Of a DNA stretch of 64,000 nucleotides, positions 2,187 to 56,485 are shown piece by piece. The notes under the pieces were generated by a model, which did not search any database, was not told where the DNA came from, and saw nothing but the letters and a program-made list of their open reading frames with translations. The DNA is taken from sequence record NC_019505.1; one strand, given 5' to 3'. The translations under genes were made by a program, and so were the position numbers. Position 1 is the stretch's first letter. Every line of letters begins with the position of its first letter. The stretch comes from Escherichia phage wV7.

Positions 2187-3811
<1,625 letters not shown>

Positions 3812-3812
<1 letters not shown>

Positions 3813-4048
3813 TGGAAGGTTTAATTGAAGCTATTAAATCAAACGACCTCGTAGCCGCTCGTAAATTATTTGCTGAAGCCATGGCTGCAAGAACGACTGA
3901 TTTAATCAAAGAAGAAAAAATCACTATCGCTCGTAATTTCTTAATCGAGGGTGAAGAACCTGATGACGAGGATGACGACGAAGATAGCGATGATGATAAA
4001 GACGACAAAAAAGACAAAGACTCTGATGAAGACGAGGATGATGAATAA
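3812..4048 (+). CDS. 67: Prohead core protein gp67 with acidic C-terminal tail
   Basis: 78 aa, D/E-rich low-complexity C-terminus; position between 20 and 68 as in T4. Confidence 0.8.
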
Positions 4049-4473
4049 TGATTCTAATCCCTGAAACTCATGAATTAGTTCTCGAGAATGTCGAAGCACT
4101 TATTCCTGAAGCACAGGGTCGCTTTGACGAGTTGTCTTCTGCTTTAAATAAAGACGATATAAATAAAATTATCGAGAATATGCTTGATGATGAAACTGAT
4201 TTAGCGGTTGCATTAGCTTCTATTAATGAAAATATGCCGTTAAATGAATTTATCGTTAAACATGTTTCTGCCCGTGGTGAAATTACTCGCACTAAAGATC
4301 GCAAAACCCGCGAACGTAATGCATTTCAAACTACCGGGTTGTCTAAAGCAAAACGTAGACAAATTGCTCGTAAAGCTACCAAAACGAAGATTGCCAATCC
4401 AGCAGGTCAATCTCGTGCTCAGCGTAAGCGTAAAAAAGCTCTTAAACGCCGTAAAGCATTAGGATTAAGCTAA
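4048..4473 (+). CDS. 68: Prohead core protein gp68
   Basis: 141 aa, basic C-terminus; start overlaps gp67 stop; T4 synteny. Confidence 0.8.
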
Positions 4474-5111
4474 TGAATGAACCCCAATTGCTAATTGAAA
4501 CTTGGGGTCAACCTGGCGAAATTATTGATGGTGTGCCAATGCTTGAATCCCATGATGGGAAAGACTTAGGTTTAAAACCTGGTTTATACATCGAAGGAAT
4601 ATTCATGCAAGCAGAAGTCGTCAATAGAAATAAACGTCTTTATCCAAAACGTATATTAGAAAAAGCGGTAAAAGACTATATTAATGAGCAAGTTTTAACT
4701 AAACAAGCTCTCGGAGAATTAAATCATCCTCCACGCGCTAATGTTGACCCGATGCAAGCCGCTATCATTATAGAAGATATGTGGTGGAAAGGAAATGACG
4801 TATACGGACGAGCTCGTGTTATTGAAGGTGACCATGGTCCTGGAGATAAATTAGCAGCTAATATTCGTGCCGGATGGATTCCAGGAGTTTCTTCTCGTGG
4901 ATTAGGTTCATTGACTGACACAAATAAAGGTTATCGTATCGTAAACGAAGGATTCAAATTAACTGTAGGTGTTGATGCAGTATGGGGTCCAAGTGCTCCA
5001 GATGCATGGGTAACTCCTAAGGAAATTACAGAATCACAGACGGCGGAAGCCGATACAAGTGCCGATGACGCCTATATGGCTCTCGCAGAGGCCATGAAAA
5101 AAGCGTTATAA
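4473..5111 (+). CDS. 21: Prohead core protease gp21
   Basis: 212 aa; sequence and length match recalled T4 gp21; start overlaps gp68 stop. Confidence 0.9.
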   Translation: MNEPQLLIETWGQPGEIIDGVPMLESHDGKDLGLKPGLYIEGIFMQAEVVNRNKRLYPKRILEKAVKDYINEQVLTKQALGELNHPPRANVDPMQAAIIIEDMWWKGNDVYGRARVIEGDHGPGDKLAANIRAGWIPGVSSRGLGSLTDTNKGYRIVNEGFKLTVGVDAVWGPSAPDAWVTPKEITESQTAEADTSADDAYMALAEAMKKAL

Positions 5112-7535: not shown

Positions 7536-7550
7536 TCTTTGACGATTTAA

Positions 7551-18982: not shown

Positions 18983-20751
18983 AAAAGCCACAAGAAATGC
19001 AAACGATGCGTAGAAAAGTTATTTCAGATAATAAACCAACACAGGAAGCGGCTAAATCCGCTTCTAATACTTTATCTGGTCTTAATGACATTTCTACAAA
19101 ATTAGATGATGCTCAAGCTGCTTCTGAATTAATAGCTCAGACTGTTGAAGAAAAATCAAATGAAATAGTTGGAGCAATTGATAACGTTGAAAGCGCAGTA
19201 AGTGATACTACTGCCGGTTCTGAGTTAATTGCTGAAACTGTTGAAATTGGAAACAATATTAATAAAGAAATCGGTGAATCGCTCGGAAGCAAATTAGATA
19301 AATTAACAAGTTTACTGGAACAAAAAATTCAGACAGCTGGAATTCAGCAAACTGGAACGAGTTTAGCAGTAGTCGAAAATGCTATTCCTGTTAAAGTCGT
19401 CGAGGATGATACAGCTGAATCTGTGGGTCCTTTATTACCGGCTCCTGAAGCAGTTAATAATGATCCTGATGCTGATTTTTTCCCTACTCCTCAGCCAATT
19501 GAACCAAAACAAGAGTCTCCAGAAGAGAAGCAAAAAAGAGACGCATTTAACTTAAAATTATCTCAAGCTTTAGATAAATTAACAAAGACAGTTGATTTCG
19601 GATTTAAGAAATCTATTTCAATTACTGATAAAATATCTAGTATGCTATTTAAGTATACCGTCAGTGCTGCTATTGAAGCTGCTAAAATGGTTGCATTGAT
19701 AATGGCTGTTGTTATTGGAATAGACCTGCTGATGGTTCATTTTAAATACTGGTCAGATAAATTTTCAAAAGCCTGGGATTTATTTAGCACTGATTTTACT
19801 AAATTCTCTAGCGAAACCGGAACATGGGGTCCTTTATTACAGAGCATCTTTGATTCTATTGATGAAATTAAAAAGTTCTGGGAAGCTGGAGATTGGGGCG
19901 GATTAACAGTAGCTATTATTGAAGGGCTTGGAAGTGTTCTTTATAATTTAGGAGAGCTTATTCAATTAGGTATGGCTAAATTATCTGCAGCAATTCTTCG
20001 AGTCATTCCTGGCATGAAGGATACTGCTGATGAAGTAGAAGGAAGAGCATTAGAAAATTTCCAAAATTCTACTGGAGCATCTCTTAATAAAGAAGACCAA
20101 GAAAAAGTAGCAAATTATCAAGATAAACGAATGAATGATGATCTTGGCCCAATAGCAAAAGGATTAGACAAAATTGCGAACTGGAAAACTCGTGCATCTA
20201 ACTGGATTCGTGGTGTAGATAATAAAGAAGCATTGACTACTGACGAAGAACGTGCAGCAGAAGAAGAAAAATTAAAACAACTTTCACCGGAAGAAAGAAA
20301 AAATGCTTTAATGAAAGCTAATGAAGCTCGTGCTGCGATGATTCGTTTTGAAAAATACGCTGATTCAGCTGATATGAGCAAAGACTCGACAGTTAAATCA
20401 ATTGAAGCTGCTCATGAAGACCTTAAAAAACGAATGAATGATCCGGATTTAAATAATTCACCAGCAGTTAAAAAAGAACTTGCTTCTAGATTTGCTAAAA
20501 TTGATGCCACTTATCAAGAGCTCAAGAAAAATCAACCTGAAGCAAAACCTGAAACTTCTGCTAAATCACCAGAAGCAAAACAGGTCCAGGTGATTGAAAA
20601 GAACAAAGCACAACAAGCTCCTGTTCAACAAGCATCTCCTTCAATCAATAATACTAATAATGTTATTAAGAAAAATACTGTCGTTCATAATATGACACCT
20701 GTCACAAGCACAACTGCTCCTGGTGTATTTGGTGCGACGGGAGTTAATTAA
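18979..20751 (+). CDS. 29: Tail tube tape-measure protein gp29 (590 aa)
   Basis: Length 590 aa as T4 gp29; start overlaps gp28 stop. Confidence 0.9.
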   Translation: MKKPQEMQTMRRKVISDNKPTQEAAKSASNTLSGLNDISTKLDDAQAASELIAQTVEEKSNEIVGAIDNVESAVSDTTAGSELIAETVEIGNNINKEIGESLGSKLDKLTSLLEQKIQTAGIQQTGTSLAVVENAIPVKVVEDDTAESVGPLLPAPEAVNNDPDADFFPTPQPIEPKQESPEEKQKRDAFNLKLSQALDKLTKTVDFGFKKSISITDKISSMLFKYTVSAAIEAAKMVALIMAVVIGIDLLMVHFKYWSDKFSKAWDLFSTDFTKFSSETGTWGPLLQSIFDSIDEIKKFWEAGDWGGLTVAIIEGLGSVLYNLGELIQLGMAKLSAAILRVIPGMKDTADEVEGRALENFQNSTGASLNKEDQEKVANYQDKRMNDDLGPIAKGLDKIANWKTRASNWIRGVDNKEALTTDEERAAEEEKLKQLSPEERKNALMKANEARAAMIRFEKYADSADMSKDSTVKSIEAAHEDLKKRMNDPDLNNSPAVKKELASRFAKIDATYQELKKNQPEAKPETSAKSPEAKQVQVIEKNKAQQAPVQQASPSINNTNNVIKKNTVVHNMTPVTSTTAPGVFGATGVN

Positions 20752-20759
20752 GGAATAAT

Positions 20760-21854
20760 ATGGCAATTGTTAAAGAAATAACTGCTGATTTAATTAAAAA
20801 GTCCGGTGAAACAATTTCAGCCGGACAGAGTACTAAATCAGAAGTAGGAACTAAAACATACACAGCCCAGTTTCCAACTGGGCGTGCTAGTGGTAATGAC
20901 ACTACAGGGGACTTCCAGGTAACAGATCTATATAAGAATGGATTATTATTTACTGCATACAATATGTCATCTAGGGATTCTGGAAGTCTTAGAACGATGA
21001 GATCTAACTACTCTTCTTCATCTTCGAGTATTTTACGTACAGCCAGAAACACTATCAGTAATACAGTATCAAAACTATCAAATGGACTAATATCAGATAA
21101 TAATTCAGGAACAATAAGTAAAGTTCCTGTTGCAAATATTCTTTTACCTAGATCTAAATCTGACGTCGATACGTCATCACATAGATTTAATGATGTTCAA
21201 GATAGTCTTATTACAAAAGGCGGAGGTACTGCTACTGGTGTGCTAAGTAATATGGCTTCAACTGCAGTATTTGGTGCGCTTGAAAGTATAACACAAGGAA
21301 TAATGGCTGATAATAATGAACAGATCTATACAACAGCTAGAAGTATGTATGGCGGTGCTGAAAATAGAACAAAAGTGTTCACCTGGGATTTGACTCCGCG
21401 CTCAACAGAAGATTTAATGGCTATTATTAATATCTATCAGTATTTTAACTATTTTTCTTACGGTGAAACTGGTAAATCTCAATATGCTGCTGAAATAAAA
21501 GGATATTTAGATGAGTGGTATCGTTCTACATTTATTGAACCATTAACGCCAGAAGACGCGATTAAAAACAAGACGTTATTTGAAAAAATGACATCGAGTT
21601 TAACGAACGTTCTTGTAGTTTCAAACCCGACAATTTGGATGGTGAAAAACTTTGGTGCAACTTCTAAATTTGATGGAAAGACTGAAGTATTCGGTCCATG
21701 CCAAATACAGAGTATTAGATTTGATAAAACACCAAATGGTAACTTTAATGGATTAGCTATTGCTCCTAACCTTCCAAGTTCTTTTACACTCGAGATTACT
21801 ATGAGAGAGATTATTACGTTAAACCGTGCTTCTTTATATACGGGGACTTTCTAA
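20760..21854 (+). CDS. 48: Baseplate tail tube cap gp48 (364 aa)
   Basis: Length 364 aa as T4 gp48; synteny. Confidence 0.9.
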   Translation: MAIVKEITADLIKKSGETISAGQSTKSEVGTKTYTAQFPTGRASGNDTTGDFQVTDLYKNGLLFTAYNMSSRDSGSLRTMRSNYSSSSSSILRTARNTISNTVSKLSNGLISDNNSGTISKVPVANILLPRSKSDVDTSSHRFNDVQDSLITKGGGTATGVLSNMASTAVFGALESITQGIMADNNEQIYTTARSMYGGAENRTKVFTWDLTPRSTEDLMAIINIYQYFNYFSYGETGKSQYAAEIKGYLDEWYRSTFIEPLTPEDAIKNKTLFEKMTSSLTNVLVVSNPTIWMVKNFGATSKFDGKTEVFGPCQIQSIRFDKTPNGNFNGLAIAPNLPSSFTLEITMREIITLNRASLYTGTF

Positions 21855-22819
21855 TGTATTCTTTAGAGGAATTTAATAATCAAGCAATAAACGCAGACTT
21901 CCAACGTAATAATATGTTCAGCTGTGTTTTTGCTACAACTCCATCAACTAAAAGCTCATCGTTAATAAGCTCAATTAGTAACTTTGCTTATAATAACTTG
22001 GGTCTAAATTCAGATTGGTTGGGATTAACTCAAGGTGATATTAATCAGGGAATTACTACGCTAATTACCGCTGGCACACAAAAACTGATAAGAAAATCAG
22101 GGGTTAGTAAATATCTTATTGGTGCCATGAGTCAACGTACAGTTCAAAGTTTATTAGGCTCATTTACAGTTGGTACATATTTAATTGACTTCTTTAACAT
22201 GGCATATAACTCATCTGGATTGATGATATATTCTGTAAAAATGCCAGAGAATAGATTATCCTATGAAACTGACTGGAACTATAATTCTCCTAATATTCGT
22301 ATAACTGGAAGAGAATTAGACCCTTTGGTTATTTCATTTAGAATGGATTCAGAAGCTTGTAACTATCGTGCAATGCAAGACTGGGTTAACGCTGTTCAAG
22401 ACCCAGTAACTGGATTGCGTGCTTTACCGCAAGATGTCGAGGCAGATATTCAGGTCAATCTTCATTCTCGCAATGGATTACCACATACTGCGGTGATGTT
22501 CACTGGCTGTATTCCAATATCTGTGAGTGCTCCTGAGTTATCATATGATGGAGATAACCAAATAACTACATTTGATGTTACTTTCGCTTATAGAGTCATG
22601 CAGGCTGGAGCAGTTGATAGACAAGCTGCCCTTGAATGGCTTGAATCTGCTACTATAAATGGTATTCAAAGCGTTCTCGGAAATAGTGGAGGTGTTACTG
22701 GACTATCTAATTCGCTTTCACGACTTAGTAGATTAGGGGGAACTGCAGGAAGCATTTCAAATATTAATACTATGACAGGAATTGTCAATTCGCAAAGTAA
22801 AATATTAGGAGCAATATAA
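21854..22819 (+). CDS. 54: Baseplate tail tube initiator gp54 (321 aa)
   Basis: Length as T4 gp54; start overlaps gp48 stop. Confidence 0.9.
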   Translation: MYSLEEFNNQAINADFQRNNMFSCVFATTPSTKSSSLISSISNFAYNNLGLNSDWLGLTQGDINQGITTLITAGTQKLIRKSGVSKYLIGAMSQRTVQSLLGSFTVGTYLIDFFNMAYNSSGLMIYSVKMPENRLSYETDWNYNSPNIRITGRELDPLVISFRMDSEACNYRAMQDWVNAVQDPVTGLRALPQDVEADIQVNLHSRNGLPHTAVMFTGCIPISVSAPELSYDGDNQITTFDVTFAYRVMQAGAVDRQAALEWLESATINGIQSVLGNSGGVTGLSNSLSRLSRLGGTAGSISNINTMTGIVNSQSKILGAI

Positions 22820-22823
22820 CAAT

Positions 22824-22852
22824 GGGGACCGAAAGGTCCCCATATTTTTATT
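22824..22852 (+). terminator. Rho-independent terminator after gene 54
   Basis: GGGGACC-GAAA-GGTCCCC hairpin followed by ATATTTTTATTT. Confidence 0.7.
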
Positions 22853-23138
22853 TACGGAATGAAATAAAAGCAGCAACTGAAGCAACAGAGGTTTCTTCAA
22901 TATAAACCTCAATTTTTACCGGAGCTTCTGACTCAAATTTACCTGTTACTACACCTTGGAAAATACTTTCAGTCTGTTCTGGCTTTGAAAAATTTTCAGA
23001 AGGAAAAATTCCGAACTTTTTATCTGTTCCAAAAATTTTGATAAATTCATCGTAAACTGCTTCATTGAAAGCGTTATCAGCGGGAATAACGCCTTCAACG
23101 ACGAGTTCTTGACCTAAAAAGCGCAAAGAAGATTTCAT
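22848..23138 (-). CDS. Hypothetical protein (96 aa) downstream of the alt paralogs
   Basis: ATG start; intact ORF; no recognisable motif. Confidence 0.6.
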   Translation of the reverse strand: MKSSLRFLGQELVVEGVIPADNAFNEAVYDEFIKIFGTDKKFGIFPSENFSKPEQTESIFQGVVTGKFESEAPVKIEVYIEETSVASVAAFISFRK

Positions 23139-23198
23139 TTTGTGTTCCTCATGTTATGTCAGTAAGACTACTATAACACAACATGAGGGACTTGTAAA

Positions 23199-25256
23199 CT
23201 ACATTTTGAACTTTTTAGACATTCCGTTGATGTTAACCAAAGAAGCTAAGATTTGAGAAACTTCGTTTTCCTCTTCTTTTGATTCTTCTACAAGGAATTG
23301 ATTAAATCCAGCCATTGGACGAACTTCACCAGTTTCCATTAGATGGTCGCCATCATATACTGATTCTTCTAATTGTTCAGAAGGAGGAACGATTGTACCT
23401 TCGATTAGATACTTGTTATAAGCAGTTTCTTTCATAAAGTAAGTACTTACTTTATTAATCTTCAGTAAAATTCCACGTGGTAGAATAACTTCAGCTTCTG
23501 ATGGAAATCCTGACAAATGACCTGGAACGATAACTTTAACTCGTTCAGCTCCTTTAATTACCATACCCACGCTAGTTTCAGCATCTTCATTAGCATATGT
23601 AGAATGACTACCCATATGCATCAAATCTTCTGCATCAACGGAACCTTCTCCTTCACCAGAAAATACTGCTCCGGAATTATCTAAGGCCATATAATTTTTA
23701 CCATACTCACCAAAGATATTTGGTTTAAGTGATGTCGATACGAAGTTCTTGAAATAGAACATTTTATTTTCAATGTTATGACGCAAAGTTTTAAAAGTAA
23801 CTTCTTGTCCACGGTAAAGTGTAGTTCCTGGAGGAAGAACTGAACCTTTAGCGAATGCAGAATCCAGCGTCTCAATATGTTTAATAGCTCGTTCCATATA
23901 TTCTTCACGTGTAGAATCAGGTTTACCTAAAAGGAATGAGTTCATTTCAACATACGAATCTGCGCAATAATCTTCAATTACATCAGACTCAGCCTGAGTC
24001 AATCCTTTTGGAGTTACTTCAGTGCTTGCATATTCATACGCCTGAGCAGCGGATTCATCAATTAATTTATAAATGCCATTCATGACAAATTGAATAATAG
24101 CTGTCTTTTCATCTGGCGTAGCTTTAGAACCTTTAACTAAATCATTGACAATTTTCTTAATAACATCAAAGCTATTAGAAATATTAATGTCAGCAAGATC
24201 GCTTAAAATTTTATCAGTTTTATAATCAAAAAATTCTTTATTCTTTAAATATTCTTGAGAACTTTGATATGTTATATCGCTCTGCAACTTGATAGATGGA
24301 TCACGTAAACGTGCATGGGCTAATGCAATATGATTTCGGAAGCTTTCTAGTTCATAATCGTTAGATTTAAAACGAGAAGCACTTCTCATACCACCGATAG
24401 CTCCTTTGCTGAAGTTTGAACCAATCTGAATAACGCCAGAGTTCATTGGTCCTTCTGCTTTATATACCGGAACTTTAGATTCAAACTCTTGATATTTCTT
24501 AGCAGCGAAGCTATCACCCTGAAGTGAAGCATCAACAGTAGAATATTGAGCTTGTGCTGCTAATCGACGGCTAATTTTAGTTTTCTGAATAACAGCTTGA
24601 TCCGTACGCTTATCATTTTCTAAAGCAATAGAAGCAGCAACTGCGACAGCTTTAGGAACAGCATTACCTGTTTTAACGTCTACATAAACATCACCAACCT
24701 TTGATTCAACTTTTGTGAATAACTCAGTTGAAATAGGAGGTACACCTGGAATGTCTTCTAAATTGGCATTTTTACGGTAAACCATAATATATGCATATTT
24801 CTTATCATAGTCCCAGATTTCCTTTAAAAGAACATATCGACCTGCTCCTTTAGTACGTACTAAACGGTCAGCAATAACTTGCATTTGACGAGCAGCGCCG
24901 TTTGTTTTACTTTTTAGTACGCGGAATAGGCATGCATCAATTTTATACTGTTTCATTGTTTGAAGAGCAGTATCAAAAACCGCATTAATGACGCCAATTG
25001 GATTTCCACCCAAGTTTTTAAGCTTAACTAACGATAATTTCTCGTTGACGCCTATCATTACGATATGCATCATTTTGTCGCCTGGCTTAACGTTTTTATT
25101 CGTATCACCGCCAGAGGTGTATGTACAAAATCTAAATCCAGGAAGCACGCTTTCTTCACCGGCTTGAATAGCAAAAATTTGTGGTATTTTATGCTTAGGA
25201 TTTAAGTTAACAACCGGCGCCGAAGCGCCGTCAAATAATTCTGTAATAAGTTCCAT
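23199..25256 (-). CDS. Alt-like ADP-ribosyltransferase paralog (685 aa)
   Basis: N-terminal ~225 aa nearly identical to the upstream paralog; R-S-E ART motifs (YRGQ, FVSTSL, EAEVILPRG); start 3 nt after the upstream stop with AAGGA SD. Confidence 0.85.
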   Translation of the reverse strand: MELITELFDGASAPVVNLNPKHKIPQIFAIQAGEESVLPGFRFCTYTSGGDTNKNVKPGDKMMHIVMIGVNEKLSLVKLKNLGGNPIGVINAVFDTALQTMKQYKIDACLFRVLKSKTNGAARQMQVIADRLVRTKGAGRYVLLKEIWDYDKKYAYIMVYRKNANLEDIPGVPPISTELFTKVESKVGDVYVDVKTGNAVPKAVAVAASIALENDKRTDQAVIQKTKISRRLAAQAQYSTVDASLQGDSFAAKKYQEFESKVPVYKAEGPMNSGVIQIGSNFSKGAIGGMRSASRFKSNDYELESFRNHIALAHARLRDPSIKLQSDITYQSSQEYLKNKEFFDYKTDKILSDLADINISNSFDVIKKIVNDLVKGSKATPDEKTAIIQFVMNGIYKLIDESAAQAYEYASTEVTPKGLTQAESDVIEDYCADSYVEMNSFLLGKPDSTREEYMERAIKHIETLDSAFAKGSVLPPGTTLYRGQEVTFKTLRHNIENKMFYFKNFVSTSLKPNIFGEYGKNYMALDNSGAVFSGEGEGSVDAEDLMHMGSHSTYANEDAETSVGMVIKGAERVKVIVPGHLSGFPSEAEVILPRGILLKINKVSTYFMKETAYNKYLIEGTIVPPSEQLEESVYDGDHLMETGEVRPMAGFNQFLVEESKEEENEVSQILASLVNINGMSKKFKM

Positions 25257-25259
25257 GAT

Positions 25260-27353
25260 TTATCCTTGAACGAACTTGTAAGGCATGTTTGTAATATCTA
25301 TGCAAGACGCAATAATTCCAAGAGATGATTCTACTTTCTGTTTAACATTTGATGAAACAAATGATGCAAAGTCAACTCTGTCTTCTATTTCAATATCACC
25401 TGTCATTGCAACCAATTCACCAGTTTCCATTAAATGGTCTCCGTCATAGATTACCGATTCGGTGAGCTCTTCCGTGGTCATAACTTCAGCTTGAATGAGT
25501 TTTGTATTATTAGATGTTGTTCCGTCATTATTAGAAGCATCAGTTATTTTATTAACTTTGACCATCAATCCACGCGGTAGAATAACTTCAGCTTCTGTTG
25601 CTATTCCGAGACTTCCTGGATATACAACATTAACTTTATGAGCTCCATCAATTGCCCATCCTATTTGAACTTTAACGTATTCAGGATTTTCTTTATACGC
25701 TCTTATTTCGTTTGGATTAATAGTTATTCCTTCTTCATTTTTATCAACTGTTAATTCATTGCGAGCTTCTGGTTCTAAAAGACCAATACCAGCATGTGTG
25801 ATTCCAAAACGTCCAAAAATGATAGGAGTTAAAGAAGTAGATACAAAATTTCTGAAGTAGAACACTTTATTTTTAACTAACGCTTCATATATAGGAGCAG
25901 TCATACTTTGAGCACGATAAACTGTGATGCCTTCCGGTATGCGGTCACCATTTTCAAAAGCTGAATCTAAGTTATTTATAGCAGATTCAATTTCTTTTTC
26001 ACTCATTACATCATATCGTTCTGGATTGTAACGACCTAAAAGAAGATTATTGATGTCAGTATATCCTGAACCGCAATATTCTCTAATGCCACGCTTTTGT
26101 GATGGAGTATATTTAGAACCATCGCGGGCAATAGTAATATCAATCATTGGACCAGCACCAATTCCAGAAAAACTGTAAATCATTCGTTTGAGGAATTTAG
26201 TTTTTGCTGCGTTCCAGGAATTTTTAGTTATTTCTTCCCAGACTTCATCTGGTTGTCCTTTACGATTTTTATTATGATTAGCAAGCCATTTATCTTTATA
26301 ATCTTCAAAGAATTGATTTACAGCTGCTGCGTATTTCTCTAAACATTTTATTGAAGTAGTTGGTTCATTTTTAATTGCATTAAAAATTACTTCTTTAATT
26401 TTTTCTGAAACTTCACCGACTTGACTCATTGGAAAGAATTTATAATCATAGTGAAGTTCATCTGCCGTTCCTTCAGCAATAATTTTTGCTGCCTTTGTTT
26501 TAGAAGCTAATGAATTAATTCCAATTTTCATTTCTTCTGCTTCGGGAATTAAAGGTGCAGTAGCTGGTTTATTAAAATTAGCTGCTGTAGATTCATACTT
26601 CTGGAATAATTCACTTTCAAATCTAGAAGATTCCAATGACTGACTTTGTGCAATTGCTCTACGGGAAATTTTAACTTTAACGATTACGGCTTGGTCAGAA
26701 CGTTTATCATTTTCTTGTGCAATAGATGCAGCAATTGCCTCATTTTTGGTTACTTGAGCTCCAGTATCTTTATTGATATAAACATCACCGACCTTCGATT
26801 CAACTTTAGTAAAGAGCTCGGTGCTAATTTCTGGAACTCCTGGAATGTCTTCTAGTGATACATTTTTACGATGTATAAGAATATATGCATACTTTTTATC
26901 GTAATCCCAGAGTTCCTTAAGAAGGACGTATCTGCCACCTGAACGACTACGGATAAGTCTATCAGCAATAACTTGAATTTGTCGAGCTTGGCCAGCAGTT
27001 TTAGACTTAAGAATACGAAGCATACAAGCATCAATTTTATATTGACGCATTGTTTGCATTGCAACAGTAAAAACTGAATTGATATAATTAATTGGGCTTG
27101 GACCAAGACCTTTTAATTTAGCAATTGAACCTTTAGCAGTTAATGTAAAAGGAACAATGTGCATCATTTTGTCGCCCATTTTTAAATCGCGATTAGTATC
27201 ACCTCCAGATGTATATGTACATAAACGAAAGCCTGGTTGTTCAATTGCATCATCAACATGAACTGAAAAAATTTGTGGTATTTTCTTCTTTGGATTTAAG
27301 TTTGTAATCGGAAGAGTAGTATCTTCGTCAAATAATTCTGTAATAAGTTCCAT
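25260..27353 (-). CDS. alt: Alt ADP-ribosyltransferase (697-698 aa)
   Basis: MMELITELFDEDTTLPI... matches recalled T4 Alt N-terminus; R-S-E motifs (YRAQ, FVSTSL, EAEVILPRG); second ATG (27353) has better SD spacing. Confidence 0.85.
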   Translation of the reverse strand: MELITELFDEDTTLPITNLNPKKKIPQIFSVHVDDAIEQPGFRLCTYTSGGDTNRDLKMGDKMMHIVPFTLTAKGSIAKLKGLGPSPINYINSVFTVAMQTMRQYKIDACMLRILKSKTAGQARQIQVIADRLIRSRSGGRYVLLKELWDYDKKYAYILIHRKNVSLEDIPGVPEISTELFTKVESKVGDVYINKDTGAQVTKNEAIAASIAQENDKRSDQAVIVKVKISRRAIAQSQSLESSRFESELFQKYESTAANFNKPATAPLIPEAEEMKIGINSLASKTKAAKIIAEGTADELHYDYKFFPMSQVGEVSEKIKEVIFNAIKNEPTTSIKCLEKYAAAVNQFFEDYKDKWLANHNKNRKGQPDEVWEEITKNSWNAAKTKFLKRMIYSFSGIGAGPMIDITIARDGSKYTPSQKRGIREYCGSGYTDINNLLLGRYNPERYDVMSEKEIESAINNLDSAFENGDRIPEGITVYRAQSMTAPIYEALVKNKVFYFRNFVSTSLTPIIFGRFGITHAGIGLLEPEARNELTVDKNEEGITINPNEIRAYKENPEYVKVQIGWAIDGAHKVNVVYPGSLGIATEAEVILPRGLMVKVNKITDASNNDGTTSNNTKLIQAEVMTTEELTESVIYDGDHLMETGELVAMTGDIEIEDRVDFASFVSSNVKQKVESSLGIIASCIDITNMPYKFVQG

Positions 27354-27376
27354 CATAGCCTCTCTAGTGTTTATTC

Positions 27377-27384
27377 TATTTATA
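27377..27384 (-). promoter_or_regulatory. T4 late promoter box TATAAATA upstream of alt
   Basis: Reverse complement reads TATAAATA about 20 nt upstream of alt start. Confidence 0.5.
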
Positions 27385-27389
27385 AAATT

Positions 27390-27407
27390 AAAGGCCCGAA
27401 GGCCTTT
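27390..27407 (-). terminator. Hairpin after the 62-aa ORF, upstream of alt
   Basis: Transcribed strand AAAGGCC-TTCG-GGCCTTT followed by AATTTTAT. Confidence 0.5.
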
Positions 27408-27594
27408 AGTAATCTAGTGGTAAGAGAGTACGATATATTTCAAACTTTGGTCCTTTTTCATAGGCATCAAATGTTTCTGTAAATTTATTGTAAGCATATG
27501 CATCTACAAATTCGAGAATGACTTGTGATACAGAAGTAGAAACATCTCCACCTTCTTTTTGAGCAATGACAATTGTTTCTAAGTAAGCTTTCAT
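27406..27594 (-). CDS. Hypothetical protein (62 aa) between gene 30 and alt
   Basis: ATG overlaps ligase stop (ATGA); acidic small protein. Confidence 0.55.
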   Translation of the reverse strand: MKAYLETIVIAQKEGGDVSTSVSQVILEFVDAYAYNKFTETFDAYEKGPKFEIYRTLLPLDY

Positions 27595-29054
27595 AAACCA
27601 GTTACCTCATGAAAATCGCCAAATACATCCTCGAATGTATTAGCTTTAGTTTTATCTTCACGTAAACGAATCGCAATCGGAAGAAATAATTTAACGTAAT
27701 CAGTGCGGCCATCAGATTTTAACCAACCGTTGCATTCGCACTCTAGAATTTTTCCAATATAATAATTTTGGTTTTCCATAATGCGAGTACGGTCAAGTTC
27801 ATGCGATTTTACACCAGCTTTATCTTTTAAGCCTGAACCAGCATTTACTTTAATTTTTCCACACTCTGACTCAAGAATAAATCCACCCGCTTTAGTAGGG
27901 TCTTTACGGTGAGGATAAATTCCTACAATTTTTAAATCAACATCAATTACTTCTTTAAATTTATAAAGATTTTTTGAACGAGCATTTTCCCATAATCCAT
28001 CGATATTTTTGAGAATAATACCTTCAAGACCTTGGTCAATATACTTTTTATAAATTACCTTAGCTTCATCTAGGTTATTTACTACCTGGTTTTCAATTAA
28101 AATTACTTTATCATAACCTGATGTCATTTGTTCTAGTTTAGAAAAACGTACATCATATTTCAAACGAAATGCAGGAAGACCGTATATTTCTACCAACGGG
28201 ACATAATCCCAGACCTGAAACTTCATGCATTGAGCTTCTTTTTCAGAAATGGTTCCCTTTAAAGATTTATTAGCGATTCCATTAGAAGTAGTACGTGATT
28301 CAGCTACTTCGGCGAATTCTTTAGCTTTACTAATTTCAGGATAAGCATCAAAAAGAAAATCTAGGCCTTCTGGTTCCTTTTCAACTTGCTCATGGTATAC
28401 CAATTCGCCATCAATTAACACACCTTCTGGATGAATCTGGCGAGCTTCTGCAGTCATTTTGATTAACTCTTCCTTGAGAAGATCTAATCCTAGATATTCA
28501 TTACCAGCTCGTGATAAAAGACGAACATCATCTAATTCATCACCTCTGACTTCAGCAAAGCACCGAGCTCCATCAGCTTTTAACTGCGCAAAAGCTGGAA
28601 ACTTGATATTCTTACTAATGCCTTTTTCATCATAAGAACTTGCCAGCATTTGAGGTTGTTCAGGAATTAAACCTGGCCAAACTTTGTTTGCAATAGATAC
28701 TGAAGCACCGCATTCAAGGTCTCGCATCATCACCCGACGCAAAACTTCAACATCATCTTTTTTACCGTCAGCAATATATCCAGTTAATTCCTCAATTGCC
28801 GCATTTCCGGTCAATTTCCGAGTAGCTAACGTGAATTCAATGAAGTCAAGCATATCGGTAAGAGTCAACATTCCAAAACTCTGGGTAGCAATACCAGGTT
28901 TAGGCCATTTCTTGATATAATACTGTAACCCACGAGAATAAGTCAGACGATATACTCGTTTAAGCAATTCATTATCTTTATTCTTTTCAAGAATTGCTTG
29001 CTTCTGCTTAGTTGAACCAATAGATGCTATTTCGTTCAGAATTTTAAGAATCAT
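27591..29054 (-). CDS. 30: DNA ligase gp30 (487 aa)
   Basis: Length 487 aa as T4 DNA ligase; adenylation lysine motif region K-A-D-G; synteny next to alt. Confidence 0.9.
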   Translation of the reverse strand: MILKILNEIASIGSTKQKQAILEKNKDNELLKRVYRLTYSRGLQYYIKKWPKPGIATQSFGMLTLTDMLDFIEFTLATRKLTGNAAIEELTGYIADGKKDDVEVLRRVMMRDLECGASVSIANKVWPGLIPEQPQMLASSYDEKGISKNIKFPAFAQLKADGARCFAEVRGDELDDVRLLSRAGNEYLGLDLLKEELIKMTAEARQIHPEGVLIDGELVYHEQVEKEPEGLDFLFDAYPEISKAKEFAEVAESRTTSNGIANKSLKGTISEKEAQCMKFQVWDYVPLVEIYGLPAFRLKYDVRFSKLEQMTSGYDKVILIENQVVNNLDEAKVIYKKYIDQGLEGIILKNIDGLWENARSKNLYKFKEVIDVDLKIVGIYPHRKDPTKAGGFILESECGKIKVNAGSGLKDKAGVKSHELDRTRIMENQNYYIGKILECECNGWLKSDGRTDYVKLFLPIAIRLREDKTKANTFEDVFGDFHEVTGL

Positions 29055-31307: not shown

Positions 31308-31321
31308 AGGGGCCGAAGCCC
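31308..31321 (-). other. Intergenic C(UUCG)G hairpin
   Basis: Transcribed strand GGGGC-TTCG-GCCCC between two minus-strand ORFs. Confidence 0.45.
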
Positions 31322-31331
31322 CTGTTTTATT

Positions 31332-32172: not shown

Positions 32173-32203
32173 GGAAAATAAAAAAGGACTCCCGAAGGAG
32201 TCC
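32173..32203 (-). terminator. Rho-independent terminator (minus strand)
   Basis: Transcribed strand GGACTCC-TTCG-GGAGTCC followed by TTTTTTATTTTCC, 5 nt after the 58-aa ORF stop. Confidence 0.7.
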
Positions 32204-32208
32204 TCAAC

Positions 32209-34008: not shown

Positions 34009-34589
34009 TATTCACCACAGAATTCGTTGATATTTTCCCAGTTTAACTTATTCAAGTTTTTCTTAGGAACATTAAACACTTCAATACCTGCATTTCGCAG
34101 AATATCATCCCAGCCAGGTTTATTTTTATCGTATGTTTCGCAATAAACCAGTTTTTTAATACCAGATTGAGCTATCGCTTTTGCACAATCTGGACAAGGA
34201 GAAAGTGTTACATACATAGTAGCACCTTCAATAGAAGAACCATTTCGTGCAGCAAACAAAATTGCATTTAGTTCAGCATGAATTTCATTTTTAGACGACC
34301 ATTCAGAGTGAGCGCTCCGGTGTTCTTTTGCCAAGACAAAACGATCAGTTGAACCAAATGATACACATTCGGGCTTATGACCTTGGATGATAGTATGTTT
34401 AGGCTTATTCAGCAACCAACCTTGCTCAGCAGCATAATCACAACAGTTCACACCACCAGCAGGTGAACCATTATATCCGGTAGAAATAATACGTCCATTC
34501 TTTTCAATTACTGCTCCTACCTTCCAGGAGCAACATTTTGATTCCTGCGATACTAAATATGCAATTTGAAGTACTGTACTCGCTTTCAT
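34008..34589 (-). CDS. cd: dCMP deaminase (193 aa)
   Basis: Zinc-binding deaminase motifs H-A-E (HAELNAI) and P-C-x-x-C (PCPDCAKAI); length as T4 Cd. Confidence 0.9.
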   Translation of the reverse strand: MKASTVLQIAYLVSQESKCCSWKVGAVIEKNGRIISTGYNGSPAGGVNCCDYAAEQGWLLNKPKHTIIQGHKPECVSFGSTDRFVLAKEHRSAHSEWSSKNEIHAELNAILFAARNGSSIEGATMYVTLSPCPDCAKAIAQSGIKKLVYCETYDKNKPGWDDILRNAGIEVFNVPKKNLNKLNWENINEFCGE

Positions 34590-49879: not shown

Positions 49880-50214
49880 AGTAGAAAATCTAATGTATTA
49901 GTTTTTTCACAACGAACAACAGAAGGACGTAAAAGATTTTCGTCAATAGCTTCTGACTGAATTTTTTCAATTATACCCGAAGGAATAAATTTAGCAAATT
50001 GAGTTTCAGGAATAGAATTTTCTTCCAAGAATGCTGTCGTAGCTTCAAGATAACTCATTCCAAACTCTTCTACCATTTTTTCAATAATAAATCCATTTTC
50101 TTGGCGGTCAAGAAGCTTTGCAATTTCATCCTTTTCTTTCTTAATTGAAAGTTCTTTTTCTGAAAGCCCGGCCTCATCGACCGGGCGAATATCATTTAGA
50201 GAAAACTGTGTCAT
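49876..50214 (-). CDS. 33: gp33 late transcription co-activator (112 aa)
   Basis: ORF track starts 3 codons upstream; ATG at 50214 gives MTQFSLNDIRPVDE... and 112 aa as T4 gp33. Confidence 0.8.
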   Translation of the reverse strand: MTQFSLNDIRPVDEAGLSEKELSIKKEKDEIAKLLDRQENGFIIEKMVEEFGMSYLEATTAFLEENSIPETQFAKFIPSGIIEKIQSEAIDENLLRPSVVRCEKTNTLDFLL

Positions 50215-55369: not shown

Positions 55370-56485
55370 ATGGAAAAATTTATGGCAAAGTTTGGACAAG
55401 GATATGTCCAAACGCCATTTTTATCGGAAAGTAATTCAGTAAGATATAAAATAAGTATAGCGGGTTCTTGCCCGCTTTCTACAGCAGGACCATATGTCAA
55501 ATTTCAGGATAATCCTATCGGAAGTCAAACATTTAACGCAGGTCTTCATTTAAGAGTTTTTGACCCTTCTACAGGAGCATTGGTTGATAGTAAGTCATAT
55601 GTTTTTTCTACTTCAAATGATACAACATCTGCTGCTTTTGTTAGTTTCATGAACTCTTTGACGAATAATAGACTTGTTGCTATATTAACTAGCGGAAAGG
55701 TTAATTTTCCTCCTGAGGTAGTATCTTGGCTAAGAGTTGCGGGAACGTCTGCTTTTCCATCTGATTCTATATTGTCAAGATTTGACGTATCATATGCTGC
55801 CTTTTATACTTCTTCTAAAAGAGCTATTGCATTAGAACATGTTAAACTGAGTAATAGAAAAAGCACAGATGATTATCAAACTATTTTAGATGTTGTATTT
55901 GACAGTTTAGAAGACGTTGGAGCTACCGGGTTTCCAAGAAGAACATATGAAAGCGTTGAGCAGTTTATGTCAGCGGTTGGTGGAACTAATAACGAAATTG
56001 CACGTCTACCAACTTCATCCGCGATAAGTAAACTTTCTGACTACAATTTAATTCCTGGCGATGTTCTTTATCTTAAAGCACAACTATATGCTGATGCCGA
56101 TTTACTTGCTCTTGGAACTACAAATATATCCATCCGTTTTTATGATGAATCGGATGGATATATTTCTTCAACACATGCTGAGTTTACTGGACAAGCTGAG
56201 TCATGGGAATTAAAGGAAGACTATGTAGTTGTTCCTGAAAATGCAGTAGGATTTACGATATATGCACAAAGAACTGCACAAGCAGGTCAAGGTGGCATGA
56301 GGAATTTAAGTTTTTCTGAAGTATCAAGAAATGGCGGAATTTCAAAACCTGCAGAATTTGGCGTCAATGGTATTCGAGTTAATTATGTCTGTGAATCTGC
56401 TTCACCTCCAGATATAATGGTATTTCCTACACAAGCATCGTCTAAAACTGGTAAAGTGTTTGGACAAGAATTTAGAGAAGTTTAA
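55370..56485 (+). CDS. 35: Long tail fibre hinge protein gp35 (371 aa)
   Basis: AGAGG SD then ATG; length as T4 gp35. Confidence 0.85.
   Translation: MEKFMAKFGQGYVQTPFLSESNSVRYKISIAGSCPLSTAGPYVKFQDNPIGSQTFNAGLHLRVFDPSTGALVDSKSYVFSTSNDTTSAAFVSFMNSLTNNRLVAILTSGKVNFPPEVVSWLRVAGTSAFPSDSILSRFDVSYAAFYTSSKRAIALEHVKLSNRKSTDDYQTILDVVFDSLEDVGATGFPRRTYESVEQFMSAVGGTNNEIARLPTSSAISKLSDYNLIPGDVLYLKAQLYADADLLALGTTNISIRFYDESDGYISSTHAEFTGQAESWELKEDYVVVPENAVGFTIYAQRTAQAGQGGMRNLSFSEVSRNGGISKPAEFGVNGIRVNYVCESASPPDIMVFPTQASSKTGKVFGQEFREV

Follow-up and report, generated by a model that had tools for sequence, protein, structure and literature searches.

The closest described relatives of the structure reported here are the CUUCGG hairpins that reportedly occur in intercistronic regions of phage T4. 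We analyzed a 64,000-nucleotide stretch of Escherichia phage wV7 (NC_019505.1; hereafter the window), in which a hairpin lies early in the coding sequence of alt.-2. It shares with the T4 elements the same C(UUCG)G motif, a GC-rich stem, a position on the mRNA strand downstream of a cistron, and the phage lineage; however, it lies 29 nt past the stop codon and encodes GASAP in the next ORF. REP elements between malE and malF are said to be intercistronic stabilizer hairpins. The likeness is that of a stable hairpin between cotranscribed cistrons, proposed to act as a shield against 3' exonucleases that makes expression unequal, but the alt.-2 hairpin is a single short tetraloop structure in coding sequence, and protection by it is a proposal. 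Small inversions of hairpin loops between inverted repeats have reportedly been seen in chloroplast noncoding DNA; the records REP2, REP3, and CT01 likewise carry the exact reverse complement of our loop between unchanged stems, although within a phage ORF, where Ser becomes Glu.

The alt.-2 hairpin also resembles intrinsic terminators and partial terminators within operons, in that it is GC rich, has a U-containing tail, and coincides with an apparent 4- to 5-fold fall in T4 reads (qualified below), but the tail GUUGUUAA differs in having 4 U in 8 nt. Like translation-activating stem-loops (TASL) of the fepA type, it is an early-coding stem-loop outside the ribosomal footprint; it differs in belonging to a gene-end family and in being kept in pseudogenes, and activation by it is hypothetical. 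The take-off hairpin of T4 gene 60 is another tetraloop-capped hairpin within a T4 coding region (PMC3014915), whereas alt.-2 is read straight through and lacks a coding gap, a stop codon at the hairpin base, and a matched pair of take-off and landing codons. We rejected a gene 60-type bypass on these grounds and because the 685-aa ORF runs unbroken and is colinear with alt.

We favor, tentatively and with a probability of roughly 0.4, the explanation that a gene-end hairpin of the T4 type has been displaced into the N-terminal linker of alt.-2, where, as a partial terminator or a barrier to decay, it would set the expression of alt apart from that of alt.-2.

The alt/alt.-2 junction and its hairpin

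Alt is an ADP-ribosyltransferase that is packaged and injected. The phage of the window, which matches E. coli O157 typing phage 7, is a Tequatrovirus, and its alt, alt.-2, and alt.-3 genes form a leftward unit (Table 1). The alt/alt.-2 junction leaves no intergenic room for a hairpin, and an RBS is annotated at the corresponding junction in phage Ac3. We found no late-promoter motif directly upstream of alt.-2, so that alt and alt.-2 probably share one transcript, judging from the sequence.

Table 1. Features of the alt/alt.-2 region, in window coordinates
Feature	Coordinates	Strand	Remarks
Bidirectional terminator-like hairpin	22822..22843	.	Closes the alt/alt.-2/alt.-3 unit against convergent baseplate and tail-tube genes
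alt.-2, Alt-like ADP-ribosyltransferase paralog, 685 aa	23199..25256	-	Hairpin host ORF; starts MELITELFDGASAPVV
alt.-2, first 29 codons	25170..25256	-	Homogenized with the alt 5' end (27267-27353)
Low-diversity island	25183..25290	-	-34 to +74 relative to the alt.-2 AUG; no common polymorphism in 18 sequences
Tail GUUGUUAACUUAAAU (GUUGUUAA, GTTGTTAA)	25200..25214	-	3' of the hairpin; U-containing, noncanonical U tract, maximum 4 T per 8-nt window
C(UUCG)G hairpin	25215..25230	-	5' arm CGGCGC 25230-25225, loop UUCG 25224-25221, 3' arm GCGCCG 25220-25215
Junction AAGGAUAAAUC	25257..25267	-	SD-like AAGGA within the alt end, alt stop, 3-nt spacer, alt.-2 AUG
alt, ADP-ribosyltransferase, 697/698 aa	25260..27353	-	Stop UAA 25262-25260, 3 nt before the alt.-2 AUG
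T4-type late-promoter motif TATAAATA	27377..27384	-	Upstream of alt
C(UUCG)G hairpin after alt.1	27389..27408	-	Intergenic; canonical gene-end placement, overlaps the stop codon

The mRNA (minus strand, 25230 to 25215) reads CGGCGC-UUCG-GCGCCG, a perfect 6-bp stem of G:C pairs with a UUCG loop and a C-G closing pair. A preliminary description of this DNA had reported this hairpin early in the 685-aa gene, and both the sequence and the folding energy bear it out: the 16-mer alone had a minimum free energy of -11.2 kcal/mol, and adding flanks brought it to -12.8 kcal/mol. The position it gave (codons 9-16, ~25 nt after the start) was slightly loose yet right; the hairpin starts 26 nt past the alt.-2 AUG and spans nt +27 to +42, taking in the third base of codon 9 and all of codons 10 to 14, and encodes (D)GASAP. 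As it had also said, the upstream alt gene has nothing comparable, the best 30-nt fold within the first 120 nt being -6.2 in alt versus -12.8 in alt.-2.

Predicted pair probabilities of the hairpin were 0.6-1.0 in local contexts up to ~500 nt, and the structure was gone in an 800-nt global fold. The 111-nt region around the hairpin scored z = -0.53 versus shuffles, giving no support to a larger structured RNA, and Rfam 15 covariance models gave nothing at or near the hairpin (22500-28000, E ≤ 1). No terminator is annotated at the hairpin site in the T4 GenBank records (NC_000866 and KJ477684) or in the Ac3 and KAW1E185 records. A "D-loop" feature in the Aplg8 record lies inside alt, far from the hairpin, and was set aside as irrelevant.

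Kinship with gene-end hairpins, conservation, and local diversity

The preliminary description had remarked that many gene ends here carry hairpins of this type. The window contains eight further hairpins of the GC-rich C(UUCG)G type (at 7549, 10492, 14191, 27389, 31308, 32184, 56489, and 60560), every one on the sense strand and 0-14 nt past a stop codon, so the remark was sound. C(UUCG)G hairpins with at least six Watson-Crick pairs numbered 8, whereas 1000 dinucleotide shuffles of the window gave 0.022 on average, an excess of several hundred-fold for the class; an all-GC C(UUCG)G hairpin did not occur in any of the 1000 shuffles. The alt.-2 hairpin is not a chance product. It has the UUCG tetraloop, C-G closing pair, and GC-rich stem of the class, with UUCG rather than CGAA on the sense strand of alt and alt.-2. 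A class member would be expected in intercistronic space, within ~15 nt of the upstream stop codon, whereas this one begins 29 nt past the stop and is the only GC-rich C(UUCG)G hairpin of the window that lies inside the next ORF. The hairpin is a real and fairly ordinary addition to the known T4-type class, and it overturns no current understanding.

The codons used point in the same direction. Given the peptide GASAP, the exact codon choice has a probability of 4.6e-5; four of the five codons are minor (GGC 14%, TCG 5%, GCG 9%, and CCG 13%), and the stem is 6/6 G:C in a genome of 36% GC. Because the codons are minor and only 0.02% of synonymous recodings fold equally well, the hairpin is specified at the nucleotide rather than the protein level.

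Among the 486 phage records with the junction, 482, T4 included, have the hairpin without a single change. The remaining four differ in the loop alone (three inverted loops and one UUCA), and the stem carries no substitution in any of the 486 related records. Poor conservation of the stem, which the preliminary description had named as grounds for giving up a role, does not apply because the stem is invariant in 486/486 genomes. In T4, the hairpin lies within alt.-1, a pseudogene remnant (frameshift and deletion); slur14-type phages keep it despite a stop at codon 6 of the downstream ORF, as do ~90 remnant-type records (a number inferred as 486 minus 395). A metagenomic variant, L027, is without the hairpin. 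alt.-2 is confined to Tequatrovirus and all junctions are at least 95% identical, too similar for deep covariation; a scan of IMG/VR and metagenomes yielded just ~10 further near-identical copies. Because the hairpin 40-mer had one match per genome, we rejected the idea that gene conversion copied the hairpin from another terminator of the same genome.

A 100-nt window at 25326-25227, overlapping the low-diversity island, had pi = 0, the minimum across the 4.76-kb alt.1-to-alt.-3 region, and the invariance of the stem is not significantly above that of the surrounding island (expected ~0.5-2 changes per 12 nt). Over the first 29 codons, 19 of 20 same-residue codons are identical between alt and alt.-2, versus ~50% elsewhere, and the hairpin patch is the sole diverged island in this homogenized 5' tract. 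In homologs, an acidic/Ser-Thr linker precedes L-P, whereas alt.-2 reads GASA-P at this place, between conserved flanking blocks; the last codon of the 3' arm is CCG, for a Pro that is kept in all homologs compared. In alt.-2, codons 1-9 (MELITELFD) are conserved, and codons 10-14 form a variable linker. From these alignments, the hairpin patch looks derived relative to alt and to other genera. In the Dhakavirus MX01, whose three alt paralogs adjoin through the same 3-nt junction, strong hairpins lie at +74 to +150 of the downstream copies, but the comparison is uninformative because those copies are hairpin-rich throughout (7 each versus 0 in the first copy).

This setting bears on two explanations that do not invoke a gene-end signal. 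There is some chance, though a minor one, that the hairpin is a neutral by-product, in which the self-complementary coding of GASAP (GGN GCN ... GCN CCN) was perfected by intrastrand template switching and persists in a young or recombination-homogenized junction. DGASAPV recoded at random already folds at -6.2 kcal/mol on average; the inverted loops of REP2, REP3, and CT01 represent template switching or inversion at the site; the alt region is recombinationally active, with alt/alt.-2 chimeras, a gene-conversion variant, and the homogenized tract; and the stem, as noted above, is no more conserved than its island. However, a by-product would have to match the gene-end class in its exact UUCG, its C-G closing pair, and its sense strand, a 1-in-hundreds coincidence, and to arrive at six G:C pairs and mostly minor codons in an AT-rich genome; UUCG orientation, moreover, is 482 versus 3 although flips are possible. 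The least probable explanation that we considered is a DNA-level element, an inverted repeat that would promote exchange at the paralog boundary as a substrate of cruciform or hairpin form, for instance by being a hot spot for recombination or replication or by binding a protein. The loop flips do indicate a mutationally active repeat, rearrangements at the locus are common (the chimeras, the T4 deletion, and the conversion tract), and near gene 5' ends the window is enriched in inverted repeats on either strand. Yet the stem, at 6 bp, is short for cruciform extrusion, and the strand-specific UUCG orientation points to RNA. No mapped crossover or deletion endpoint falls at the hairpin: crossovers lie at ~aa 150 and ~aa 600, the T4 deletion runs from ~codon 117, and the conversion tract covers codons 1-67.

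RNA levels and translation across the junction

T4 RNA-seq read densities (PMC6024815 Table S1) were 24.0 reads/nt for alt, 4.6 for alt.-1, and 9.6 for alt.-2 at 5 min post infection, and the alt.-1/alt ratio was 0.19-0.27 in six conditions. This is an apparent 4- to 5-fold fall from alt to alt.-1 at 5 min, perhaps ~2- to 3-fold when short-ORF counting bias is allowed for. In the same table, other T4 ORFs of ~200 nt have 0.53-0.73 of the density of their upstream neighbor, and after 30.9, where a UUCG hairpin is accompanied by a U tract, the downstream ratio is 0.07. Elsewhere in this T4 unit, density does not fall across two further UUCG hairpins (alt.1 to alt, 1.09; 30.7 to 30.6, 2.75), and the density of alt.-2 is twice that of alt.-1, a pattern that simple termination would not predict. 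The T4 drop is confounded because the downstream ORFs are pseudogene remnants, for which faster decay or Rho polarity is possible, and because featureCounts drops any read that spans two features, a loss to which a 186-nt ORF with neighbors on either side is prone. A further confounder is that reverse transcriptase is impeded by CUUCGG hairpins. Temporal classes show no discontinuity at the junction because alt, alt.-1, and alt.-2 are all of the "middle" RNA class, although such classes are qualitative (PMC9697503).

The preliminary description had offered two roles, a differential throttle on translation and a processing site. The second, with differential expression as its consequence, fits better, given the T4 density of 0.19-0.27 of that of alt, a figure confounded by the pseudogene and by short-ORF undercounting. 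The throttle, in which the hairpin slows initiation or early elongation on alt.-2 so that less protein is made than from alt, is very unlikely and found no support. A stable structure early in the ORF of the downstream paralog only is what it would predict, but in a thermodynamic model the energy needed to open the SD-AUG region was 6.07 kcal/mol with the hairpin, 6.09 after synonymous disruption, and 5.82 with an alt-type patch. The hairpin lies beyond the usual 30S footprint, a 6-bp stem is, as PMC7534054 notes, readily unwound by elongating ribosomes, and the hairpin persists even with a dead ORF. Sequestration or insulation of the RBS was rejected given the unchanged opening energy, and the modeled accessibility argues against an initiation role, although this model cannot register a roadblock effect.

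Such a roadblock, a translation-activating stem-loop beyond the 30S footprint that positions initiating or reinitiating ribosomes on the alt.-2 AUG in the manner of the fepA TASL, is in our view quite unlikely. Its position would suit, as the hairpin at +27 to +42 is an early-coding stem-loop that starts just outside the footprint, and the junction, with its weak SD AAGGA, is built for termination-reinitiation. Early-coding elements of the TASL type are documented (Jagodnik et al., 2017, as summarized in PMC11979758 and PMC7534054). Among the strongest in-ORF hairpins of the window, 12 of 24 fall in the first 120 nt of genes versus 4.4 expected, and three of these early hairpins start at +21 to +29. 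Against a roadblock, it does not predict the T4 RNA drop, and the motif family is the gene-end one. The perfect hairpin also persists in the inferred truncated-gene records, including T4, and in the slur14 type, an objection that is weak because divergence is shallow.

A -1 frameshift stimulator was rejected too. The upstream GAA UUA UUU GAC contains no XXXYYYZ, and the spacer is 2-3 nt where 5-9 is required; the -1 frame at the hairpin reads AUU AUU UGA, an immediate stop that rules out productive frameshifting.

A proposed gene-end signal inside the next ORF

We return to the displaced gene-end hairpin, which the motif and sense orientation support because they match those of gene-end hairpins, as does its retention where the downstream ORF is dead (T4, the slur14 type, and the inferred remnants). 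Because alt and alt.-2 are only 3 nt apart, the hairpin would have been displaced into coding sequence, and with the first nine codons conserved, the first writable place would be the variable linker. It would form on the bicistronic alt-alt.-2 transcript, at a distance that should let it fold even with a ribosome on the alt stop codon or the alt.-2 AUG. Once folded, it may be a barrier to 3'-to-5' exonucleases, a weak factor-independent terminator, or both, and the level of the alt message would then exceed that of the alt.-2 part. We infer the hairpin to be the cause of the T4 read drop, and likewise the route, barrier or terminator. The hairpin is absent from our list of terminator-like structures, for which the scan called for at least 5 T in 8 nt, because its tail has only 4 T in 8.

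The same arrangement may recur. A -17.7 kcal/mol hairpin lies 28 nt into the gene 33 homolog, 5 nt past the stop codon of the gene that it overlaps. Where genes abut or overlap, T4-type phages might routinely place cistron-boundary hairpins early in the following ORF, within ~120 nt of its start. Such hairpins would make up an unannotated layer of control over mRNA segment stability or reinitiation, and hence over protein stoichiometry within operons; the alt.-2 hairpin would be one such, in a tolerant linker, evolving by loop flip-flop. We regard this generalization as speculative and rather unlikely.

The loop-inversion alleles are a small natural case of palindrome flip-flop within a phage ORF, and the site inside T4 alt.-1 has been missed by annotation and by terminator predictors. 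If the hairpin sets the 3' boundary of alt, it would explain the unequal output of two coupled paralogs under one late promoter. It would then also follow that, where intergenic space has run out, T4-like phages are able to place gene-end RNA signals in tolerant stretches of the next protein.

A stable hairpin in the first codons of alt.-2

On the mRNA strand, the start of alt.-2 (the 685-aa Alt-like paralog) reads CGGCGC-UUCG-GCGCCG, a C(UUCG)G tetraloop hairpin that occupies nt +27 to +42 (codons 9–14, peptide D-G-A-S-A-P) and begins 29 nt past the alt stop. The preliminary description had reported this element and suggested a folding calculation; we obtained a minimum free energy of −11.2 kcal/mol for the hairpin alone and −12.8 kcal/mol with flanks, and it dominated the ensemble in local-context folds. 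The paralogous stretch of the upstream alt gene has no comparable structure, as had been proposed (best 30-nt window −6.2 vs −12.8 in alt.-2).

The hairpin is not a chance occurrence. The window holds 8 C(UUCG)G hairpins of 6 or more Watson-Crick pairs against a mean of 0.022 per shuffled window, and an all-G:C version was absent from all 1000 dinucleotide-preserving shuffles. Four of the five hairpin codons are minor in the genome (GGC 14%, TCG 5%, GCG 9% and CCG 13% within their families). Given the peptide, this codon set has a probability of 4.6e-5, and when DGASAPV was recoded with codon-usage weighting, only 0.02% of the recodings folded equally well. The peptide is itself self-complementary at the codon level (Gly GGN with Pro CCN, Ala GCN with Ala GCN), so the peptide and the hairpin evidently evolved in concert.

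T4 was known by 1988 to carry CUUCGG hairpins in its intercistronic regions. Consistent with the earlier remark that this type marks gene ends, the other GC-rich C(UUCG)G hairpins of the window lie 0–14 nt past a stop codon on the sense strand. The hairpin is already present in T4; what is new here, namely its in-ORF placement and the loop-flip alleles, is a small addition. Of the 24 strong hairpins (−12 kcal/mol or lower per 30 nt) inside annotated genes of the window, 12 fell within the first 120 nt, against 4.4 expected (p = 0.0004), and the alt.-2 hairpin may thus belong to a set of early in-ORF hairpins. The strongest, GCCCGGUCGAUGAGGCCGGGC (−17.7 kcal/mol), is 28 nt inside the gene 33 homologue, whose overlapping upstream neighbor has its stop codon 5 nt before the hairpin; in T4 RNA-seq, gene 33 has 0.50 times the read density of dsbA.

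The (-) strand order is DNA ligase, alt.1, alt, alt.-2 (the name used in RB14/RB51 nomenclature) and alt.-3. Alt and Alt.-2 proteins are 41% identical overall and ∼67% identical across the first 240 residues. An SD-like AAGGA is located within the 3′ end of alt. Alt and alt.-2 are probably co-transcribed, because a late-promoter motif is absent immediately before alt.-2; the nearest such motifs are one preceding alt and a second TATAAATA copy internal to alt, ∼720 nt upstream of the alt.-2 start, which would, if active, provide a separate transcript for alt.-2. Over the 4.5 kb around the hairpin, the window matches the Tequatrovirus Escherichia coli O157 typing phage 7 (KP869105.1) at 100% identity, and the annotation of that record agrees with the window coordinates; several hundred T4-like phages are 95–99% identical to this region. 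Dhakavirus MX01 carries three tandem alt paralogs (L018, 2913–9173) with identical 3-nt junctions (GGGTAAATAATG); hairpins of −10 kcal/mol or lower number 7 in each of its two downstream copies and 0 in the first, a contrast that may stem from a difference in composition or expression among the paralogs.

Coordinates of features at the alt locus and of compared hairpins (window positions unless a phage is named)
Feature	Position	Strand
alt	25260..27353	-
alt stop codon UAA	25262-25260	-
alt.-2	23199..25256	-
alt.-2 AUG	25256	-
Hairpin	25230..25215	-
Late-promoter motif before alt	27384-27377	-
Late-promoter motif internal to alt	25980-25973	-
Near-identical 5′ tract, alt.-2 (first 29 codons)	25170-25256	-
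Near-identical 5′ tract, alt (first 29 codons)	27267-27353	-
Low-diversity island	25183-25290	
100-nt window of minimum pi	25326-25227	
Flipped loop, equivalent in window	25221-25224	
Flipped-loop allele, REP2 (L011)	2502-2560	
Flipped-loop allele, CT01 (L015)	~2514-2570	
Hairpin region, slur14 (L013)	1485-1500	
Chimeric alt, ECML-134 (L003)	3009-5069	
Chimeric alt, KAW1E185 (L004)	3009-5066	
30.9->30.8 UUCG hairpin	32184-32205	
alt.1->alt UUCG hairpin	27389-27408	
30.7->30.6 UUCG hairpin	31308-31323	
In-ORF hairpin, example	50166-50186	-
In-ORF hairpin, example	55390-55413	+
In-ORF hairpin, example	20801-20826	+
In-ORF hairpin, example	20861-20886	+
In-ORF hairpin, example	23067-23096	-
In-ORF hairpin, example	34511-34533	-
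In-ORF hairpin, example	19044-19065	+

Conservation and origin of the hairpin patch

Conservation in related phages had also been named as a check. An alt/alt.-2-type junction was present in 486 phage records, and megablast with a 40-nt query, built so that each possible 28-nt seed spans the entire hairpin, found it letter-perfect in 482. The four exceptions had loop changes only, and there were no stem substitutions across the 486 records. In REP2, REP3 and Shigella phage CT01 the stems were unchanged and the loop was reverse-complemented (CGGCGC-CGAA-GCGCCG, Ser12 to Glu); in Shigella phage sb1 it was UUCA, a synonymous change. Over the 5-kb locus, REP2 and CT01 share only 94.4% identity and each is closer to the window than to the other, which points to either repeated flipping or transfer of a short tract by recombination. 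The pattern of a loop that varies and a stem that never does is suggestive only. The hairpin sits inside a low-diversity island of ∼108 nt (−34 to +74) spanning the alt stop and the alt.-2 start, with no common polymorphism among 18 sequences (∼1 per 6–10 nt in flanking coding sequence), and an overlapping 100-nt window has pi = 0, the minimum of the 4.76-kb region. Stem invariance is therefore not significantly stronger than that of its surroundings, and divergence among the records is shallow. A neutral palindrome, made or perfected by template switching, is an unlikely alternative.

Where alt and alt.-2 encode the same residue within their first 29 codons, they use the same codon at 19 of 20 positions, compared with ∼50% further on, which suggests gene conversion between the two 5′ ends. 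The sole diverged island is the hairpin patch at codons 10–16 (GAA GAT ACT ACT CTT CCG ATT ACA in alt, GGC GCT TCG GCG CCG GTT GTT in alt.-2). In Alt homologues from Karamvirus, Dhakavirus and Mosigvirus, the N-terminal block ..E-[LV]-F-[DE] is conserved and leads into an acidic/Ser-Thr linker that varies; next comes a block in which a P is invariant and precedes [VIT]-[VTI]-N-L-x-P; the residue pair at this P is L-P in most and Y-P in two MX01 copies. The hairpin coincides exactly with the variable linker, takes in the final base of the Asp codon and also the Pro codon (CCG), and has Ala (GCG) in place of the Leu of alt and most homologues. Together, these features make the hairpin look like a derived, nucleotide-level construction in the first protein stretch that tolerates one.

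The hairpin also persists where the second gene is dead. T4 carries it within the 61-codon ORF alt.-1; its second paralog is frameshifted and has lost ∼1.7 kb, and its alt.-1 and alt.-2 ORFs (L002/L021) are the remnant of a gene that is full-length in most Tequatroviruses of the collection (∼395 of 486 junction-bearing records). Remnant types would number ∼90, the difference between the 486 junctions and the 395 records whose N-terminal 200 aa is intact. In slur14-type phages, codon 6 of the remnant has changed from GAA to TAA, and the hairpin is retained. Just past the hairpin, the T4 reference NC_000866 has GTTACATTA in place of the GTTAACTTA found in T4 "wild" and every other sequence.

The single-alt Tequatroviruses ECML-134 and KAW1E185 have alt/alt.-2 chimeras with crossovers at ∼aa 150 and ∼aa 600, respectively; these are unequal-recombination products from which junction and hairpin were deleted. 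Metagenome contig OQVZ01027721.1 (234–560) has the alt 3′ end and a normal junction, then a hairpin-less gene that is alt-type over codons 1–67 (EDTTLPIT), then alt.-2-type, then unrelated; it looks like a gene-conversion variant, with assembly error possible in this single 1,086-bp contig. Chimeras, the T4 deletion and the metagenomic conversion mark the locus as recombinationally restless. We give very little weight to a DNA-level role for the hairpin sequence.

Translation and transcription across the junction

The preliminary description had raised the possibility that the hairpin throttles translation. Opening −15 to +14 was modeled to cost 6.07 kcal/mol in the wild type, 6.09 once the hairpin is disrupted synonymously, 5.98 with the loop flipped and 5.82 with an alt-type patch, so that the hairpin is predicted to leave the ribosome-binding site untouched. 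It starts outside the usual 30S footprint, and a 6-bp stem is a minor obstacle to an elongating ribosome. The throttle is thus without support, and we consider it highly improbable. A translation-activating roadblock of the fepA TASL type is rather unlikely. Translational bypassing and a frameshifting signal were ruled out from the sequence, and an Rfam search returned no match.

The hairpin tail, GUUGUUAACUU, contains no more than 4 T in 8 nt, and a terminator scan did not detect the site. We converted featureCounts per-gene read counts, taken 5 min after T4 infection (Patterson-West et al., 2018; PMC6024815, Table S1), to reads/nt; in wild-type infection, in transcription order, these were 32.8 for gene 30, 21.9 for alt.1, 24.0 for alt, 4.6 for alt.-1, 9.6 for alt.-2 and 15.6 for alt.-3, which has its own early-type promoter. 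The alt.-1/alt ratio was 0.19–0.27 in all six conditions of that dataset. Other ∼200-nt ORFs in the leftward unit of alt were at 0.53–0.73 of their upstream neighbor, a gauge of short-ORF counting bias. After allowing for this bias, T4 RNA drops ∼2–3 fold at the hairpin, a value confounded by downstream ORFs that are pseudogene remnants, by the discarding of reads overlapping two features, and by the capacity of UUCG-type hairpins to impede reverse transcription. The read density of T4 alt.-2 is twice that of alt.-1. These confounded data are consistent with a partial terminator or a decay barrier without proving either. Across three intergenic UUCG hairpins, T4 reads were cut to 0.07 (30.9->30.8, with a U tract), showed no drop (alt.1->alt, ratio 1.09) or rose (30.7->30.6, ratio 2.75), and the motif by itself is therefore no predictor of termination.

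Our preferred reading, to which we assign a probability of about 0.4, is that of a gene-end hairpin displaced into the next ORF. The 3-nt alt/alt.-2 junction would place it inside alt.-2, and it would act on the bicistronic alt–alt.-2 RNA as a 3′-exonuclease barrier and/or weak terminator, with the outcome that alt and alt.-2 would not be expressed 1:1.
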